Virus genome (UHGV): UHGV-0078433
Length of the DNA: 37,911 nt
Direction: 5' to 3' (one strand)
Origin: a virus
The translations under genes were made by a program, and so were the position numbers. Numbering within the stretch: the first letter of the stretch is position 1; every line of letters starts with the position of its first letter. Below, piece by piece: positions 1 to 37,861 of the stretch. The notes under the pieces were generated by a model. The model was given only the letters and a program-made list of their open reading frames with translations. It did not search any database and was not told where the DNA came from.

Positions 1-49
1 GCGCTAATTTTTTGTCAACGCACTGGGTTAGTTGAATTTACAACCATGC

Positions 50-445
50 TCAGTATCTCGATAAACGCAGAGAAATGATGCAGTGGTGGGCGGATTGGCT
101 TGATGAAAAAGTGGCGTAATGCCACCCATCACCCACCCTGTCATCCTGTAGCGCGCTGTTGATGAAGAACGTCACGCGCCCCAGCACCTCAACTTCCTCC
201 TCCTCCTCCCCTTCGATCGCTTCACCATCATCAGTGATTAATGTCCTACCCATTACCCGGGCAAACTGCGTTCTGCCGCCAGATAAAATCAGCAGAACCT
301 GATTCTGTACCAGCCTGGTGCACGGCTCGATAACGGCAAAGCCGGATGAGGTTTCCAGGATGCGAGTGTCGACGCCAACACCGCAGATTCGCTCCGGAGT
401 TAACCGCTGCTCTACATAGTCGCCAGCCGGCGAAGGGAAGCCCAT
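50..445 (-). CDS. UmuD'-like S24-fold protein, begins at the UmuD autocleavage position, catalytic Ser/Lys not conserved
   Basis: N-terminus MGFPSPAGDYVEQR matches the UmuD segment just after the Cys24-Gly25 cleavage site; GGAGG-type RBS 8 nt upstream; positions aligning to SGDSM and TVKKL read SSGFAV and a Gly/Glu-rich stretch. Confidence 0.6.
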   Translation of the reverse strand: MGFPSPAGDYVEQRLTPERICGVGVDTRILETSSGFAVIEPCTRLVQNQVLLILSGGRTQFARVMGRTLITDDGEAIEGEEEEEVEVLGRVTFFINSALQDDRVGDGWHYATFSSSQSAHHCIISLRLSRY

Positions 446-693
446 TACAGAACCCTCCCCATGTTACGTAGCATCCAGAGACGGTTTTCACTGTGGTCAG
501 GCGTCTTGTCGACAAAGAACTCTTGATAGCGCTGGATCCACTCGTTGGCGTCGACCTGGCTGAAATGCCAGTTTCTCGTGCGCAACTCACGGATGAAGTC
601 GTTCGTATGAAGGCACTGATAACCCTTTGGGTTTTGCTGTACTGCAGCGACAAATGCGCTGTGAATGTCTGATTGGCGGGGTATGATCTGCAC
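445..693 (-). CDS. Hypothetical 82-aa protein, stop overlaps start of UmuD'-like gene (TAATG)
   Basis: Open frame of 82 codons; only possible start is GTG at 693 abutting AGGAG with zero spacer, in-frame TAA immediately upstream; no recognisable family. Confidence 0.45.
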   Translation of the reverse strand: MQIIPRQSDIHSAFVAAVQQNPKGYQCLHTNDFIRELRTRNWHFSQVDANEWIQRYQEFFVDKTPDHSENRLWMLRNMGRVL

Positions 694-700
694 TCCTTTT

Positions 701-720
701 TACTGTTTTTATATACAGTA
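701..720 (-). promoter_or_regulatory. LexA (SOS) box, TACTGTATATAAAAACAGTA as read on the - strand
   Basis: Perfect CTGT-N8-ACAG with AT-rich spacer; as I recall it, the same 20-mer as the E. coli umuDC operator; sits at the centre of a ~60-bp palindrome (684-743) upstream of the 82-aa/UmuD'-like unit. Confidence 0.75.
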
Positions 721-776
721 GTTTTAAAGGAGATGCAGATCAATGAGGCGATACCTATCAATAATCCCGGCTGGCG

Positions 777-2606
777 TTACACCTGACCAAGGTCCTCTAC
801 GCTTTCCTGATCATTCAGCAAGGTAATGGCAACAGCAATTGAGGAGAGGATAGTTTTGATTTCTATGGTGTTCATCCCTTCCTTTTCCCGGACGTACTCG
901 CATAATTTATCGACGTCAAATATCTCTCTGATGTTTGTATATTCGGCGGCTCTTTCAAGCAAGTGCACGATTTCTTCTCGCTGACCTTCGACAAATTGAG
1001 CCTGCCATGCTTGCACAGACCTTGGCGTGAATTTAACCCCGCTATCATAAGGAGCATCTGCGATATCAAGGCCAAATCTACCCTGCAATGATTTATCCCA
1101 TGTCGCATTCAAAAATGGCAGAGAAACTAATTCAGGAGCCAGCTTTGCCATGACGCTGTAGTGGAACAATTCTTTGTTCCTGGCCTCCGGACTGAGCTTG
1201 AATACCAAACGCGCAACTTTAGGAGAGAGAAGTGGCATCAGTTTAATTCTGCCTGTGACGTTCTGAGCAAGAGGGCCGTTCCAATTGGAAAGACGGTTTT
1301 CTACGAAGAACTTCTCAGGTAAAACATCAAACCTTACAGATTTAATATTCTCCTCAAGCCAGCCGTAGAACCAACCTATTTGAGCGTTTTTATACAAACT
1401 GGAGAGAATGTTTAATGGATCCATCTTCTGATGGTAGTTTATGAACTTAGAAAGAATTGCATCTTTATTGTCCATAAAGGACAGGTTTTTAAACTGCTTG
1501 GCGTGTCCGCCGGGTCCGCGATATAGCTCGCCGCCAAAGCCAGTCATATCGGACGTTATATTTTTGATGGTGCGTTCAGCTGTTGCTCCATCCCATGGGC
1601 AAATATAACTTTCCATTCTGTAGGAATGCCAGTTAAGTTTTTCCCATGAATTAGCAAAATCCTGAGCTTTAACTTGTGGAGCCTTAACGTTAGCGACGTG
1701 CTTAACGCCGATTTTGCTGGCTATGTTCTGAGCGCAACTTATCTCCGGGCTTCCTTCCGGTCCGTTCGTAAATGTGGTAATCCTGTCTTTGAATCCTGCA
1801 CCCAATGCCAGTGCAAGGACAAGACGAGAGTCCTTACCACCGGTCAGTGATAAGCGGAGTTCACCGGGAATGTTTTCACTCGCAGCCTTAAAGTTTTTCA
1901 CCAATTCATCTACGATCAAATCCCAGTCATCACCTGAAAGGTCATTTAGATATTCAGCATCCTCACTTGAAGGCCAGATCTGATTCTTAAATTTATTGAT
2001 ATTTACTGTTGTTGAACCGATTGGTGACTTTAAATAGCTACCTGCCGTGATTGTATTTACACCTTCAAATGGTGTTTCATTTCCAAATATATTGGCATGC
2101 CCAATCAACCAGCTCAATGAGGAAAGGTTATATTTACCATTGCCTCGTAATTCATGTAATGCAGATGCTCTGTTACTTACGCAGGTCACACCATCAATTA
2201 TTGTGTAATAAATAGGACAGGTGCCTGAGAAATCGCCGAAAGCAAGGAGGCCATTCTTGGAGGTTATTGAAACGAAGTTGTAAGACCCGGAAATATTGTC
2301 AAACATGTATTCCGCATCGTTTTTTGTGGAGGCATCAAGTGCGGCGTCAGACACGTCATAGCTATCCCCCATCCTTAAAACAGGGCCATTTATCAGGCAT
2401 ACGCCGCTTTGCTTAGATGTTATTCTTTTTGATATTTCGCCTTCCGCATTGCCACATGCTGTATATGCCCAAGCTCCGCTACCAGATATTTTATTAGCCA
2501 CCTCTACTGGCTTAAATGTTAAGTTCCTTTTTAGGGCCTGCTGCGCTGTCTCGTATAATTTCTTAACAGACTCGCTTTTTCCATTTAAAACAATAAAGTT
2601 TATCAT
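777..2606 (-). CDS. Asparagine synthetase (AsnB)-family PP-loop protein with GATase-like N-domain lacking the N-terminal Cys nucleophile
   Basis: 609-aa ORF; PP-loop LSLTGGKDS; AsnB-like motifs GDFSGTCPIYYT and AGSYL; residue 2 is Ile not Cys; visibly AT-rich versus neighbours. Confidence 0.8.
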   Translation of the reverse strand: MINFIVLNGKSESVKKLYETAQQALKRNLTFKPVEVANKISGSGAWAYTACGNAEGEISKRITSKQSGVCLINGPVLRMGDSYDVSDAALDASTKNDAEYMFDNISGSYNFVSITSKNGLLAFGDFSGTCPIYYTIIDGVTCVSNRASALHELRGNGKYNLSSLSWLIGHANIFGNETPFEGVNTITAGSYLKSPIGSTTVNINKFKNQIWPSSEDAEYLNDLSGDDWDLIVDELVKNFKAASENIPGELRLSLTGGKDSRLVLALALGAGFKDRITTFTNGPEGSPEISCAQNIASKIGVKHVANVKAPQVKAQDFANSWEKLNWHSYRMESYICPWDGATAERTIKNITSDMTGFGGELYRGPGGHAKQFKNLSFMDNKDAILSKFINYHQKMDPLNILSSLYKNAQIGWFYGWLEENIKSVRFDVLPEKFFVENRLSNWNGPLAQNVTGRIKLMPLLSPKVARLVFKLSPEARNKELFHYSVMAKLAPELVSLPFLNATWDKSLQGRFGLDIADAPYDSGVKFTPRSVQAWQAQFVEGQREEIVHLLERAAEYTNIREIFDVDKLCEYVREKEGMNTIEIKTILSSIAVAITLLNDQESVEDLGQV

Positions 2607-2871
2607 TTAATTCCCGCGCAAGATAATTGGCAATATTTAAAGTTGATAACTATTTGGTTAACAGAGTAAACAACCAAGATTGTGCAATACTTGCTAGGAC
2701 GGGTCAATGATTTGTGTGTGGTTTTGGGGTCTAACCACTAATTTTGATATCAGTAGTGAATTTTACAAATGCAGGATTGAGGGTGCTCTTGCGCCACCAA
2801 AAGATGCGAATATGACGTAGCGAAAGCACCCTCTCTGTTTGGGTAGGATTGACGATTAGTGCATCAGAAAG

Positions 2872-5358
2872 CTACTTTGCTTCGAGATTTCCCACTCGTT
2901 CAGCCAGAGCCTCAAACTGCGATAGCAGCCTTTGATGATTACGACGATGAAGGGCAGCCTCCATCACTAATGCCTCCTCATATCGAATGCCATAGCGTGA
3001 TCCCGCTTCAACCGCCGGAACTACTACATCGCCAGTCTCTTCATCAAGAACTTCTGGTGAGCTTTCCCACTTGTCATAACAGAAGAAAGCAAACTGGTGA
3101 GGATCAAGTCCATGACGGATAAACGCTTCTTGCGCACGCTGGGCAATAATGCCGACATGCCAACGGGCTCCATCATCTCCCTTTGCCTCTATACGGTCAA
3201 TGAACTGGAACTGCACGAAATCTACTTCCGCCCAGGCATCCAGAATATCATCTGCGTACGGCGCTTCCATTAACCGTGAATCTGTCGTTTGGACGGGTTC
3301 GAGAGAACCACGAGCCAGCATCACTGGACGCGATTTTTGCCTTTCATCGGAGGTGACAGTATACGCAGCCTGAGTGAATCCGCCCGCAAATGGACTTGAA
3401 CTGGTACCAACAGTTCTGGTGTTAGCGGCGCTGGGCTGGATATTGCCGTTTACGCTCATGTTGGTGTTGATATTTACGACAGCAGAAGCAAAGCGTGCAA
3501 CTTCAGTACCGGCCGACGCTTCAGTTGATGAGACGTAGAGGCCGACAGCATTTTTACTAAGGACTGCGGTTCGGGCAAATCCACTAGAATCGCGGATCTC
3601 TCCGAGCCCAACTTGATAATCGTCAGACTGCGGGCCGGTAACGTTAGTGATGCAATGGAATACGCCACCCATTTGGTTAAACGGATCTGTCACGGATTCA
3701 AGATGAAGGCCATCTATAATGATCTTCCCGGTATTGCTACCCCCTGACTCTATGCCTACAGGGCAATTCCTTAACGTCACGTTGGTTAGTTTTTGATATT
3801 TCCTGTTCAGGCGTAAGGCAACATTGGTGTCTCTACACACAATATTGGTTACAGAACACGCCTCTGCATCACCAAACTGCCGATCACTGGCTCCGGAGGC
3901 TGTTGTTGTCTGGTATCCGGTTATTGCGTTAGCGCACTGAATATTTGATCCGTTGCAATATCGCTCCTCAATCCACACTGAAGCCCCAATTCTTCCGCCA
4001 TCATATCCGAGACATGATATATTGCTGTAATTGACGAATGGGGATTTAATATGGAGCCCGATGATGTCTGAATCAGTGGATTTAAATCGGTTCTGAATGA
4101 CTGTGATGTTTGTAACATCACTCCATACACCGCCAGTTCCACGACTGACGGTATCGCCAATGATCCCCTGCTTGATACGGACGCCAGCGCCGGGCGCTCC
4201 GACGTTACCAAAGTCTGACACATAAACGTTCGATACCTTCGGCGCCAATGACATTACGTCAACGCCTGCCCAAGGGTGGGCTGGCTCGTCAAGTTGCCCG
4301 AAGTTGAAAACGAAGATGTTATTTAATTGAAACGCGCGACTGACAGACCCATTATCCTTAATGTCGATACCATCTGCGCCGGTGTTTTCAGACCAGAATC
4401 CGTCGATGCTGCAGCCCTTATACCCGCCATTCTGAAGACCCAAGGCATAATGAGAGCAGTTCTTTACCTTGAGGCCGCGAATTGTAAGCCCCTCGATTCC
4501 TGCTCCGACAATGCCTTCAGTTTGCCGGGCGTAAGGAGTACCATTCCATAAGTAATTCCCGTCGATACAAATATCTTGAAGGCCGACGCCCCTTACTTTT
4601 GTGGTGCCGTTTTCGAGCGGTGGCTTTGACCACTGTATTACCCCATATGCAGCATCTGTGTTGTAAGCTCTTATAGTAGTAGAGTTCCATCCCTGCCCAC
4701 GGAGAATAATGTTGTCAAATGGGATGCGCAAAGCAGCAACGTTTAACGTTGCGTTGGCAGAGCTAAATTCAGTCGGATCCTGATGCACCATGTATAAGGG
4801 CCGCGGGAATACAATCGTGCCCCCGCCGGCTGCACTGAGTTCCTGCGCCTTCTGCATTATCAGTCTTGCGTTCTGCAGGGCGACAACCTGGCTAACAACC
4901 CCAGGGATTACGCCAAATGAATCAGCGGTTATTTCAATGCCACCAATTAATGACGAGCCGGTACTGGAGCTTAATCTCTGGACAAAAGAAAACGGATCAA
5001 CCAGGGAGCAATTTTCAAAATAGTATTGCTGAGCCCCATAAGCATCGTAAACAGCCATGCTGTAATCACTTTCAGTGACTATGGTTACAACCTGGCCATT
5101 ATATACTGGGTAACCTGAGGAATTAATTTTAACTGGCTGGCTGATCTGCACCAGGGAGCCATTTTCATTCCTGAAATAAACCGCTACCCTATTGGCTGGA
5201 TTTGTTGGATCCGTGTCAGGAACACCAACATAAATATTACCGTTTGCGATAGCTTTAAAGCTTCTCGGCGTAATAAATGGGATGTACGGCATTGTTACTT
5301 GCTGGTTGGCAATGATATCTGGCATTTGCTGTTCTCCAGGTGCAGAAAAGCCGCACAA
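2872..5358 (-). CDS. Tailspike: P22 gp9-like head-binding N-domain, beta-helix depolymerase-like centre, C-terminal self-cleaving chaperone (S74-type) domain
   Basis: N-terminal ~110 aa resemble P22 tailspike N-terminus (recall); repetitive beta-helix-like middle; SDERQK motif followed by ~150-aa chaperone-like tail. Confidence 0.85.
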   Translation of the reverse strand: MCGFSAPGEQQMPDIIANQQVTMPYIPFITPRSFKAIANGNIYVGVPDTDPTNPANRVAVYFRNENGSLVQISQPVKINSSGYPVYNGQVVTIVTESDYSMAVYDAYGAQQYYFENCSLVDPFSFVQRLSSSTGSSLIGGIEITADSFGVIPGVVSQVVALQNARLIMQKAQELSAAGGGTIVFPRPLYMVHQDPTEFSSANATLNVAALRIPFDNIILRGQGWNSTTIRAYNTDAAYGVIQWSKPPLENGTTKVRGVGLQDICIDGNYLWNGTPYARQTEGIVGAGIEGLTIRGLKVKNCSHYALGLQNGGYKGCSIDGFWSENTGADGIDIKDNGSVSRAFQLNNIFVFNFGQLDEPAHPWAGVDVMSLAPKVSNVYVSDFGNVGAPGAGVRIKQGIIGDTVSRGTGGVWSDVTNITVIQNRFKSTDSDIIGLHIKSPFVNYSNISCLGYDGGRIGASVWIEERYCNGSNIQCANAITGYQTTTASGASDRQFGDAEACSVTNIVCRDTNVALRLNRKYQKLTNVTLRNCPVGIESGGSNTGKIIIDGLHLESVTDPFNQMGGVFHCITNVTGPQSDDYQVGLGEIRDSSGFARTAVLSKNAVGLYVSSTEASAGTEVARFASAVVNINTNMSVNGNIQPSAANTRTVGTSSSPFAGGFTQAAYTVTSDERQKSRPVMLARGSLEPVQTTDSRLMEAPYADDILDAWAEVDFVQFQFIDRIEAKGDDGARWHVGIIAQRAQEAFIRHGLDPHQFAFFCYDKWESSPEVLDEETGDVVVPAVEAGSRYGIRYEEALVMEAALHRRNHQRLLSQFEALAERVGNLEAK

Positions 5359-30450: not shown

Positions 30451-31101
30451 ATGAATACACAACTGATGGGTGAGCGTATTCGCGCTCGCAGAAAAGAACT
30501 CAAGATTAGGCAGGCTGCCCTTGGCAAGATGGTTGGCGTGTCTAATGTTGCTATTTCCCAATGGGAGCGATCTGAAACTGAGCCCAATGGCGAAAACCTA
30601 TTGGCCTTAGCCAAGGCTTTGCAGTGCTCCCCTGATTACCTGTTGAAAGGAGAGGATAGTCTTTCAAACATTGCCTATCACAGCAGGCATGATCCAAGAG
30701 GTTCGTATCCTCTAATTAGTTGGGTAAGCGCAGGATGTTGGATGGAAGCTGTAGAGCCATATCATAGGCGTGCAATAGATAACTGGTACGACACAACGGT
30801 AGATTGTTCTGAAGACTCTTTTTGGCTCGACGTTAAAGGCGATTCAATGACTGCCCCGGCAGGACTGAGTATTCCTGAGGGGATGATTATTCTCGTCGAC
30901 CCAGAAGTCGAACCACGTAATGGAAAGCTGGTAGTCGCCAAACTTGAAGGAGAAAACGAGGCGACATTCAAAAAGTTAGTTATTGATGCCGGTAGAAAAT
31001 TCCTGAAACCACTCAATCCACAATACCCAATGATTGAAATCAATGGGAACTGTAAAATCATTGGCGTTGTCGTTGATGCCAAGCTAGCAAACCTTCCTTA
31101 A
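30451..31101 (+). CDS. c2: C2 repressor (LexA-like S24 family, P22-type)
   Basis: Near-identical to P22 C2 as recalled; intact GDSM and KK cleavage motifs. Confidence 0.95.
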   Translation: MNTQLMGERIRARRKELKIRQAALGKMVGVSNVAISQWERSETEPNGENLLALAKALQCSPDYLLKGEDSLSNIAYHSRHDPRGSYPLISWVSAGCWMEAVEPYHRRAIDNWYDTTVDCSEDSFWLDVKGDSMTAPAGLSIPEGMIILVDPEVEPRNGKLVVAKLEGENEATFKKLVIDAGRKFLKPLNPQYPMIEINGNCKIIGVVVDAKLANLP

Positions 31102-36594: not shown

Positions 36595-36813
36595 ATGTAC
36601 TTGACACTTCAGGAGTGGAACGCACGCCAGCGGCGCCCAAGAAGCCTTGAAACAGTTCGTCGATGGGTACGCGAATGCAGGATATTCCCTCCTCCGGTTA
36701 AGGATGGAAGAGAGTATCTGTTCCACGAATCAGCGGTAAAGGTTGACTTAAATCGACCAGTAACAGGTAGCCTTTTGAAGAGGATCAGAAATGGGAAGAA
36801 GGCGAAGTCATGA
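36595..36813 (+). CDS. xis: Excisionase Xis (lambda-type)
   Basis: MYLTLQEWNARQRRPRSLETVRRWVRECRIFPPP... as recalled for lambda Xis; 23-nt overlap with int. Confidence 0.95.
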   Translation: MYLTLQEWNARQRRPRSLETVRRWVRECRIFPPPVKDGREYLFHESAVKVDLNRPVTGSLLKRIRNGKKAKS

Positions 36814-37861
36814 GCGCCGGGATTTACCCCCTAACCTTTATATAAGAAACAATGGATATTACTGCTACAGGGACCCAAGGACGGGTAAAGAGTTTGGATT
36901 AGGCCGAGACAGGCGAATCGCAATCACTGAAGCTATACAGGCCAACATTGAGTTATTTTCAGGACACAAACACAAGCCTCTGACAGCGAGAATCAACAGT
37001 GATAATTCTGTTACGTTACATTCATGGCTTGATCGCTACGAAAAAATCCTCGCCGGCAGAGGAATCAAGCAGAAGACACTCATAAATTACATGAGCAAAA
37101 TTAAAGCAATAAGGAGGGGGCTGCCTGATGCTCCACTTGAAGACATCACCACAAAAGAAATTGCGGCAATGCTCAATGGATACATAGACGAGGGCAAGGC
37201 GGCATCAGCCAAGTTAATCAGATCAACACTGAGCGATGCATTCCGAGAGGCAATAGCTGAAGGCCATATAACAACAAACCCGGTCACTGCCACTCGCGCA
37301 GCAAAATCAGAGGTAAGGAGATCAAGACTTACGGCTGACGAATACCTGAAAATTTATCAAGCAGCAGAATCATCACCATGTTGGCTCAGACTTGCAATGG
37401 AACTGGCTGTTGTTACCGGGCAGCGAGTTGGGGATTTATGCGAAATGAAGTGGTCTGATATCGTAGATGGCTATCTTTATGTCGAGCAAAGCAAAACCGG
37501 CGTAAAGATTGCCATCCCAACAACATTGCGTGTTGATGCTCTTGGGATATCAATGAAGGAAACACTTGATAAATGCAAAGAGATTCTTGGCGGAGAAACC
37601 ATAATTGCATCTACACGTCGTGAACCGCTTTCATCCGGCACAGTATCAAGGTATTTTATGCGCGCACGAAAAGCATCAGGTCTTTCCTTCGAAGGGGATC
37701 CGCCTACCTTTCACGAGTTGCGCAGTTTGTCTGCAAGACTCTATGAGAAGCAGATAAGCGATAAGTTTGCTCAACATCTTCTCGGGCATAAGTCGGACAC
37801 CATGGCATCACAGTATCGTGATGACAGAGGCAGGGAGTGGGACAAAATTGAAATCAAATAA
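36791..37861 (+). CDS. int: Tyrosine integrase (lambda Int)
   Basis: Near-identical to lambda Int as recalled; C-terminal catalytic HxxR...Y region. Confidence 0.95.
   Translation: MGRRRSHERRDLPPNLYIRNNGYYCYRDPRTGKEFGLGRDRRIAITEAIQANIELFSGHKHKPLTARINSDNSVTLHSWLDRYEKILAGRGIKQKTLINYMSKIKAIRRGLPDAPLEDITTKEIAAMLNGYIDEGKAASAKLIRSTLSDAFREAIAEGHITTNPVTATRAAKSEVRRSRLTADEYLKIYQAAESSPCWLRLAMELAVVTGQRVGDLCEMKWSDIVDGYLYVEQSKTGVKIAIPTTLRVDALGISMKETLDKCKEILGGETIIASTRREPLSSGTVSRYFMRARKASGLSFEGDPPTFHELRSLSARLYEKQISDKFAQHLLGHKSDTMASQYRDDRGREWDKIEIK

Follow-up and report, generated by a model that had tools for sequence, protein, structure and literature searches.

Organization of the Locus

The viral genome UHGV-0078433, analyzed here over its whole length of 37,911 nucleotides (hereafter the window), is P22-like and represents either a prophage or the genome of a phage. 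On its minus strand it carries a LexA-type SOS box ahead of two small genes, here called gene 1 and gene 2, and the box is flanked by inverted arms that lie in the promoter on one side and at the ribosome-binding site (RBS) of gene 1 on the other. Read along the minus strand, a gene of 609 amino acids (aa) is followed by a 33-nt gap, the promoter/operator, gene 1 and gene 2 (Table 1); the regulatory region and the gene pair are together referred to as the module.

The box (701–720) reads TACTGTTTTTATATACAGTA on the plus strand and TACTGTATATAAAAACAGTA on the minus strand (720 to 701). Its core is the only site in the 37.9-kb window that matches CTGT-N8-ACAG with zero mismatches (703–718), which confirms the perfect SOS box reported in the initial annotation, and it combines this palindrome with the AT-rich center and the consensus TACTGT...ACAGTA of a LexA operator. 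Sites with one mismatch show no excess (17 in the window vs. 13.1 ± 3.6 in shuffles). The 20-mer is identical to that upstream of umuD in Escherichia coli K-12, the box of a gene listed among the UV-induced genes with LexA motifs in PMC3009722; the earlier identification of this site as the E. coli umuDC operator was correct and understated.

On the minus strand, the hexamer TTGATC (743 to 738) stands 17 nt from TACTGT (720 to 715), as had also been noted initially for a -35-like element. The box overlaps the promoter, with its left half serving as the putative -10 element, and this geometry is conserved in ~240 loci. Transcription would be expected to start at ~707–708, inside the box and ~7 nt past TACTGT. 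A generic promoter scan did not call the TTGATC/TACTGT promoter, because TACTGT is a poor match to the -10 consensus, and we retain the assignment because of its comparative conservation.

Table 1. Positions of the module, its control elements and two further genes of the window.
Feature	Position	Strand	Remarks
Gene 2, UmuD'-arm protein	50..445	-	phrog_3469 "UmuD-like"; start overlaps stop of gene 1 (ATGA); own Shine–Dalgarno sequence GGGGAGGG
Gene 1, 79-aa protein	445..684	-	phrog_3893; predicted winged-helix fold
Start codon of gene 1	682..684	-	ATA here; ATG in almost all relatives
Downstream arm, AAAGGAG + TGCAGATC + first start-codon base	684..699	-	Shine–Dalgarno sequence 699 to 693; second GATC at 685–688
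LexA (SOS) box TACTGTATATAAAAACAGTA	701..720	-	identical to E. coli K-12 umuDC operator
Putative -10 hexamer TACTGT (left half of LexA box)	715..720	-	from geometry; same layout in K-12 umuDC
Upstream arm, TGATCTGCA-T-CTCCTTT	726..742	-	in -35/promoter spacer; anti-Shine–Dalgarno CTCCTTT 732 to 726; TGATCTGCA 742 to 734
-35 hexamer TTGATC	738..743	-	read from sequence; contains Dam site GATC (738–741)
Conserved motif ATTGATAG	755..762	-	~12 nt upstream of -35; common to K-12 umuDC
Upstream gene, 609 aa	777..2606	-	co-oriented; weak asparagine-synthase/PP-loop similarity; stop 33 nt before -35
Prophage repressor, P22 C2-like	30451..31101	+	HTH_3 + Peptidase_S24

Homology to the Chromosomal umuDC Control Region

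Approximately 110 bp around the box are homologous to the umuDC regulatory region of K-12, where the sequence upstream of umuD is ATATTGATAGCCTGAATCAGTATTGATCTGCTGGCAAGAACAGACTACTGTATATAAAAACAGTATAACTTCAGGCAGATTATTATG. The alignment of the two shares the ATTGATAG motif, ATTGATCTGC (which contains the -35 hexamer), the 17-nt spacing and the identical 20-mer, and GCAGAT(T/C)AT precedes the start codon in both; the window carries GCAGATCAT before this codon. We compared 162 phage-module loci, including a few that an intron or rearrangement interrupts, and 80 chromosomal umuD loci drawn from various species of Enterobacterales. In the phage-module loci the box is exact or carries one to four changes, and box and -35 hexamer keep a fixed spacing there and in most of the 80 chromosomal loci; TTGA(T/C)C and TACTGT are 17 nt apart in K-12 umuDC and almost throughout the related loci. 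The ATTGATAG motif is likewise conserved in phage modules and K-12. DNA upstream of about -60 is unrelated between loci while the positions of box and -35 hold, the pattern expected of a functional promoter/operator on a mobile module.

Judged by these alignments, the whole promoter, and not the box alone, is homologous to that of umuDC. We consider it highly likely that positions 684–762 (minus strand) form a sigma-70 promoter with a single LexA operator, i.e., an SOS promoter. Given the identity to the umuDC operator and the -35/-10 geometry conserved in ~240 loci, the two downstream genes are very probably under SOS control, in agreement with the initial annotation. The SOS box itself is ordinary and already known, and the phage module belongs to a known kind. 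Sequence identity and homology, conservation, and complementarity with its statistics are direct findings, from which we infer LexA binding, the start site and any effect on translation; the literature searched yielded no usable report of a mapped start site for umuDC.

The ATTGATAG motif (285–292 in locus L163) makes an ATTGAT direct repeat with the -35 region, at 21-bp spacing, and a pair of Dam GATC sites, one per arm and 53 bp apart (685–688 and 738–741), flanks the operator, the one inside the -35 hexamer being present in K-12 umuDC as well.

Inverted Arms Around the Box

The initial annotation described a ~60-bp palindrome centered on the box. Inverted arms do exist and are far beyond chance expectation, consisting of two perfect pairs (684–692/734–742, 9 nt; 693–699/726–732, 7 nt) separated by a single unpaired base at 733, but they are not concentric with the box: the gap between box and arm is 1 nt on one side and 5 nt on the other, and the arm axis (~712.5–713) lies ~2 bp off the box center (710.5). 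The best reading is that the arms are not part of LexA recognition.

The AGGAG strings within the arms had been thought to abut a start codon without a spacer, and so perhaps to be palindrome arms rather than ribosome-binding sites. For the minus strand this does not hold, since AGGAG lies 8 nt upstream of the family start codon (ATG in relatives, ATA in the window), and because of this spacing AAAGGAG is a normal Shine–Dalgarno sequence (SD). On the minus strand, AGGAG belongs to a palindrome arm and at the same time acts as a genuine SD, with the upstream arm as its complement (anti-SD), which settles the puzzle that these strings had posed.

RNA of the minus strand over 678–748 is predicted to fold at -27.2 kcal/mol (z = -8.9), whereas 200 dinucleotide-shuffled controls average -6.4 ± 2.3 and none is as stable (0/200), and the plus-strand RNA of the same 71-nt segment at -29.4 kcal/mol (z = -6.6). 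The stem predicted for a read-through transcript spans ~22 bp and contains one bulge as well as a small internal loop. The predicted native leader (660–708) is unstructured (-3.6 kcal/mol, z = -0.3); under the -35/-10 assignment, the upstream arm lies upstream of the predicted start site and would be absent from the native mRNA. A Rho-independent terminator was considered for this hairpin and rejected, as no U-run follows it on either strand and no minus-strand terminator-like site was detected in 1–3000. An Rfam 15 covariance-model search of the same 3 kb (1–3000) gave no match at E ≤ 1.

Arm Complementarity Across Related Loci

We scored the duplex between the 23-nt promoter segment and the box-to-start segment of each locus against shuffles. 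Phage loci average -16.7 vs. -7.3 kcal/mol for shuffles, with p < 0.05 in 78% of 130 haplotypes, and chromosomal umuDC loci -9.5 vs. -6.4 kcal/mol, with p < 0.05 in 34% (5% expected) and p < 0.01 in 16%. In K-12 umuDC, the complementarity between promoter and SD is partial (-13.2 kcal/mol, p = 0.007); in the window it is much stronger (duplex -24.5, fold -27.2 kcal/mol).

The sequences that pair differ between loci, being CTCCTTT/AAAGGAG in the window, CCTCCTGAA/TTCAGGAGG in L004 and CTGCCCTCCGATAAA/TTTATCGGAGGGCAG in L030. Clean double changes lead from the CTCTC/GAGAG phage group to CTTTC/GAAAG in L147 and also distinguish L016 (TGATCTTC/GAAGATCA), and alignment columns 10/57 hold A-U in 36 sequences, C-G in 21 and U-G in 21. 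Unrelated arm solutions are found in the chromosomal umuDC loci of Enterobacter (L168), Dryocola (L220), Pseudescherichia (L209) and Citrobacter (L216, L205). When a fixed structure was imposed on 108 distinct phage haplotypes, 82% of cells were paired vs. 78.1% in 500 shuffles (0/500), with a covariation score of 0.159 vs. 0.113 (0/500), and sliding the partner by 1–3 columns lowered the paired cells to 34–57%.

Pairing is also stronger in the sense than in the antisense strand when each is normalized to its own shuffles. Over the 17-nt spacer, the sense z is -2.05 vs. -1.32 antisense in phage loci (p = 2e-11) and -1.03 vs. -0.52 in chromosomal loci (p = 1e-4), and the Enterobacter locus L168 reaches -19.1 sense vs. 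-4.3 antisense. This sense-strand advantage arises from G-U pairs and favors a constraint at the RNA level. The predicted probability that the stretch from SD to start codon is unpaired is, in the window, 0.56 in the native leader, 0.12 in read-through RNA and 0.46 in a shuffled-promoter control; the corresponding means over the phage loci are 0.55, 0.22 and 0.41.

Collectively, these comparisons indicate that complementarity of this kind is a recurring property of umuDC-type promoters, with differing sequences and registers. Within the spacer (window 721–737; alignment A5 columns 11–15), E. coli-type loci have five hypervariable positions after TTGATCTGCA, with more than 20 variants, nearly all pyrimidine-rich, and a bulge position that shifts with the variant; TGCA, TTTAAAAC, the box and AAAGGAGTGCAGATCATG, which flank this block, are nearly invariant.

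A Proposed Model for Translation Limited to SOS-Induced Transcripts

These features are consistent with the following scheme. In an undamaged lysogen, LexA bound over the -10 element and the start site would block transcription, and upon DNA damage, RecA-stimulated cleavage of LexA would free the promoter. The SOS-induced mRNA would begin inside the box (~707) with a short leader and an open SD, and would encode the proteins of genes 1 and 2. Transcripts arriving from the upstream moron or a phage late operon would carry both arms and could fold into the ~22-bp hairpin with the operator at its tip, burying the SD together with the initial base of the start codon, and possibly creating an RNase III substrate, whereas the SOS transcript, which lacks the upstream arm, would stay unfolded. 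Translation would in this way depend on transcripts that start at the LexA-controlled promoter of the module itself, on the same principle as fold-back inhibition in IS10 (Davis, Simons & Kleckner, 1985, Cell 43:379, as cited in PMC13181058).

Read-through into the module is to be expected. The 609-aa gene is a likely source in the window, where no terminator-like site was found between it and the module on the minus strand. Across 143 distinct contexts, the nearest large upstream open reading frame (ORF) is co-oriented in 109, and its stop lies a median of 105 nt before the start codon, so that there is often no room for a terminator.

Taken as a whole, the statement that a LexA-repressed umuDC-type promoter is combined with fold-back masking of the RBS appears to us slightly favored by the available comparisons. 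For the masking of the RBS in read-through transcripts, considered by itself, we would put the chances just under even. The broader proposal, that umuDC-type SOS promoters in both chromosomes and phages hold an anti-SD in their spacer such that transcripts from other starts fold over the RBS, is put forward more tentatively still.

Alternative Explanations for the Arms

Several observations weigh against fold-back masking. The sequences are phylogenetically related and the structural evidence is all computational; single-linkage clustering gives 10 phage spacer classes, six of them significant, with most haplotypes chained into a single class, which limits their independence, and 32 chromosomal classes, again with six significant (binomial p = 0.005). 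About one-fifth of the phage haplotypes and most chromosomal umuDC promoters have no significant pairing, and the accessibility predicted for K-12 umuDC in read-through RNA (0.26) does not fall below that of the shuffled-promoter control (0.25). Pairing strength, moreover, is unrelated to the orientation of the upstream gene (co-oriented vs. opposed, -16.4 vs. -15.3 kcal/mol in phage loci, p = 0.36; -9.5 vs. -7.8 kcal/mol in chromosomal loci, p = 0.23), the differences having the direction that read-through predicts without reaching significance.

This last result is also what would be anticipated if the arms had no function of their own, which we regard as unlikely overall. The SOS promoter would then derive from a umuDC ancestor in which each arm is conserved separately, one for the -35/GATC and the other for the SD plus spacer, and the residual complementarity would be preserved or re-created by quasi-palindrome template switching, a mutagenic process seeded at the palindromic LexA box. 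Such a non-adaptive origin is a serious rival to fold-back masking. The outer part of the stem is mostly TGATC/GATCA, i.e., a self-complementary Dam site that doubles as the -35 element and whose conservation could be due to the -35 and Dam methylation, and ATCTGC/GCAGAT is already present in K-12 umuDC. Opposite GGAG, the E. coli group has a freely variable block of 5 nt that is often mismatched, and bulge position and register shift among close relatives, as templated correction would produce. Templating at the DNA level should, however, be strand-symmetric, and the sense-over-antisense advantage persists after normalization; nor would it yield pairing that depends on G-U alone, as in L168. 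The unrelated arm sequences of distant umuDC operons all target the SD, and in the E. coli group both TGCA after the -35 hexamer and TGCAGATC between SD and ATG are strictly conserved, neither of which is required for promoter or RBS function.

A hairpin confined to read-through RNA might instead act as an RNase III processing site, comparable to sib of phage lambda, or stabilize the 3' end of the upstream operon mRNA, which we consider improbable. The ~22-bp stem with its bulge and small internal loop is in the size class of RNase III substrates, and it is placed where a co-oriented upstream transcription unit ends, beside the prophage's integrase end; the lack of a U-tract on either strand speaks against an intrinsic terminator. 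Processing and occlusion are not separated by sequence, and cleavage in the SD/start region would have the same outcome, so that this possibility is a variant of fold-back masking rather than a true alternative to it.

A role at the DNA level, whether through a second protein or extra LexA contacts, a cruciform, or modulation of the promoter by the pair of Dam sites, seems more doubtful again. The inverted repeat does surround a known dimer-binding operator, its center is AT-rich, and GATC occurs in both arms 53 bp apart, once within the -35 hexamer. Against this, the arm sequences differ wholly between groups with complementarity retained, which argues against sequence-specific recognition by a protein; the arms are bulged and ~2 bp off the box center; many functional-looking relatives have TTGACC or TTGACG and therefore no GATC; and the sense-over-antisense bias points to RNA.

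Finally, although AGGAG and ATG do occur on the plus strand, a small divergent ORF under the same operator, opened by AGGAG-ATG (729–735) or by ATG at 743, was rejected on spacing and lack of conservation and has a negligible probability: AGGAG has zero spacer to the ATG at 733, the mirror-image -35 would be only 12 nt from TACTGT on that strand, the ATG is not conserved (GTG in L001, neither in other groups) and belongs to no conserved ORF, and the plus strand runs antisense into the 609-aa gene.

Proteins Encoded by the Module

The gene 1 product is 79 aa long in essentially all homologues and has no Pfam, NCBIfam or PADLOC match. Its AlphaFold model is confident (pLDDT 89.5), with a helix-strand-helix-helix-strand-strand topology, and the best PDB matches are all winged-helix DNA-binding domains, if weak ones (E ≥ 0.05, TM about 0.5–0.6); we predict from the model that it is a winged-helix protein. 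The start codon is ATA in the window, in E. coli N9 and in L083, and ATC in L095; in E. coli N9 the ATA start is annotated by PGAP, with the protein named "PH domain-containing." A GTG at 691–693 is in frame with gene 1 but overlaps the SD. AUA initiates translation poorly, and gene 1 may for this reason be weakly translated in the window.

The gene 2 product begins MGFPSPAGDYVEQRL and matches UmuD residues 25–38, the first residues of RecA-processed UmuD', with the arm motif GFPSPAxDYVEQR. In hhalign and PDB profile searches, only residues 2–19 align, to UmuD 25–42; beyond residue 19, no relation to UmuD or S24 was detectable by Pfam, hhalign, PDB profile search or the HumD model, and three members of the gene 2 family gave no Pfam match to a Peptidase_S24 domain with its Ser-Lys dyad. 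Membership of the HumD family was rejected on the whole-protein score, which is below the curated cutoff (NCBIfam NF051876, 29.2 bits vs. 120, with only profile positions 1–21 matching). The AlphaFold model is unreliable (pLDDT 46.6). By its sequence, the protein could be a mimic or competitor of the UmuD' arm; we do not claim it as a Pol V subunit. Its typical length is 105 aa, and it reaches 131 aa in the window because the 3' end reads into the antisense of an integrase (intS) remnant, replacing the last three residues by a 28-residue extension. Defense-system libraries contained no match to the products of gene 1, gene 2 or the 609-aa upstream gene.

At the DNA level, the 5' end of gene 2 (GGCTTCCCTTCGCCGGCTGGCGACTATGTAGAGCAGCGG; 402–445 vs. 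L163 437–480) is, by eye, ~74% like umuD codons 25–37. This suggests that the module may be derived from umuD, the winged-helix ORF having taken the place of the 24 codons for the part that is cleaved off. In E. coli MB51 (L244, 3260–3930), the gene pair has neither LexA box nor SD ahead of gene 1, in what looks like a rearranged upstream region; its 105-aa partner protein is named "S24/S26 family peptidase" by PGAP, and Pfam finds no S24 domain in it.

Prophage Setting and Distribution of the Module

The window encodes a tailspike with the P22 head-binding domain (2872–5358), Mnt/Arc and CII, and a complete lambda-type integrase (36791–37861). The C2-like repressor carries an Ala-Gly site and GDSM and FKKL motifs, which, together with its HTH_3 and Peptidase_S24 domains, supports by homology the earlier statement that it is RecA-cleavable. 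The 609-aa gene, a moron between the tailspike and the SOS module, has an SLTGGKDS motif and scores below cutoff in Pfam (20 bits) and against TIGR01536 (38.7 bits vs. 267), with no PADLOC match; a promoter-like site lies near it at 2707–2679.

Besides the complete integrase, a 3' remnant of an intS-type integrase is present at 1–119 (plus strand), through which the gene 2 ORF runs antisense over 50–130 (minus strand), gaining 28 extra codons. The module also adjoins intS/argW in E. coli N9 and in Klebsiella phage RothC. Many phages of Klebsiella, Enterobacter and Leclercia have it, and its carriers include both lambdoid and P22-like phages, with Escherichia, Klebsiella, Enterobacter and Cronobacter as hosts. 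Among 5,426 complete E. coli genomes, 192 give a match, and in 29 of these the match covers ≥80% of the 636-bp query.

Some of these loci are interrupted by a group II intron (Rfam RF02005, 184.5 bits), located at 1055–1331 in L012 and also present in L018, L022, L042, L057 and L068. It stands directly after a half-site of the SOS box (...AAAAACAGT|GTGCGCC), where it separates the operator from the SD of gene 1, and in L044 and L050 the same intron end is at the other edge of the box in opposite orientation (GCGCAC|ACTGT...). As the intron abuts both box edges in opposite orientations, its apparent homing target is the half-site ACAGT of the palindromic LexA box, in either of the two strands.

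Relation to Known Systems

The closest relative of the control region is that of E. coli umuDC itself, with which the module shares the identical 20-bp LexA box, the -35 TTGATC, the 17-nt spacer, the -10 TACTGT, ATTGATAG and GCAGAT(T/C)AT. The module differs in driving a winged-helix ORF and a UmuD'-arm protein instead of umuD-umuC, with no umuC present, in its location between tailspike/moron genes and the integrase end of a P22-like prophage, and in its much stronger hairpin. HumD of phage P1 has been described as a phage-encoded, pre-processed UmuD' homologue (McLenigan et al., 1999, as cited in PMC4713147 and PMC11541004). Like HumD, the gene 2 product starts at the equivalent of UmuD Gly25 and would need no RecA-mediated cleavage, but it matches UmuD' at residues 2–19 only, has no detected Peptidase_S24 domain and is preceded by the extra winged-helix gene.

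The arrangement of the arms recalls other systems. In IS10/Tn10 fold-back inhibition, transcripts from external promoters alone reportedly form a hairpin and are poorly translated. The module similarly has a segment upstream of its own predicted start site that is complementary to the RBS; it is distinct in carrying this anti-SD within the spacer of the promoter that drives an SOS-regulated operon/phage moron, with the operator in the loop, in having no transposase, and in that fold-back is here a prediction from sequence and RNA folding. The sib element of lambda lies downstream of int, which it regulates, and acts via RNase III and exonucleolytic decay. Like sib, the module hairpin lies close to the prophage's int end, would form in full in no transcripts but those that read through, and would decide the fate of the mRNA; unlike sib, it covers a 5' RBS.

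Prophage genes under LexA control outside the main immunity switch are also known, among them tum of coliphage 186. The antirepressors of the Gifsy prophages are a further example (PMC3121763). The module resembles both in placing a host LexA box before a small prophage gene, so that SOS input would be separate from repressor cleavage, but the prophage studied here already has a cleavable C2-type repressor. The 79-aa protein has no sequence similarity to these families and shows no sign of an antirepressor role.

Implications for Phage Genes Under Probable SOS Control

The comparisons above point to a widespread prophage module that has taken over the complete umuDC control region. Because it encodes a predicted winged-helix protein together with a putative mimic of only the N-terminal arm of activated UmuD', its gene content suggests that the phage may interfere with the host Pol V/RecA* machinery, or make use of it, upon induction. 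In the literature searched, where older SOS papers are thinly covered, we found no description of promoter-embedded RBS masking for umuDC; if confirmed by experiment, an anti-SD inside the promoter would add a further form to a regulatory device that is already known. Should the model hold, it would constitute a portable insulation layer, not recognized before, that keeps mutagenesis-related genes translationally silent unless LexA is inactivated, and phages could place SOS-only morons directly downstream of their late operons.

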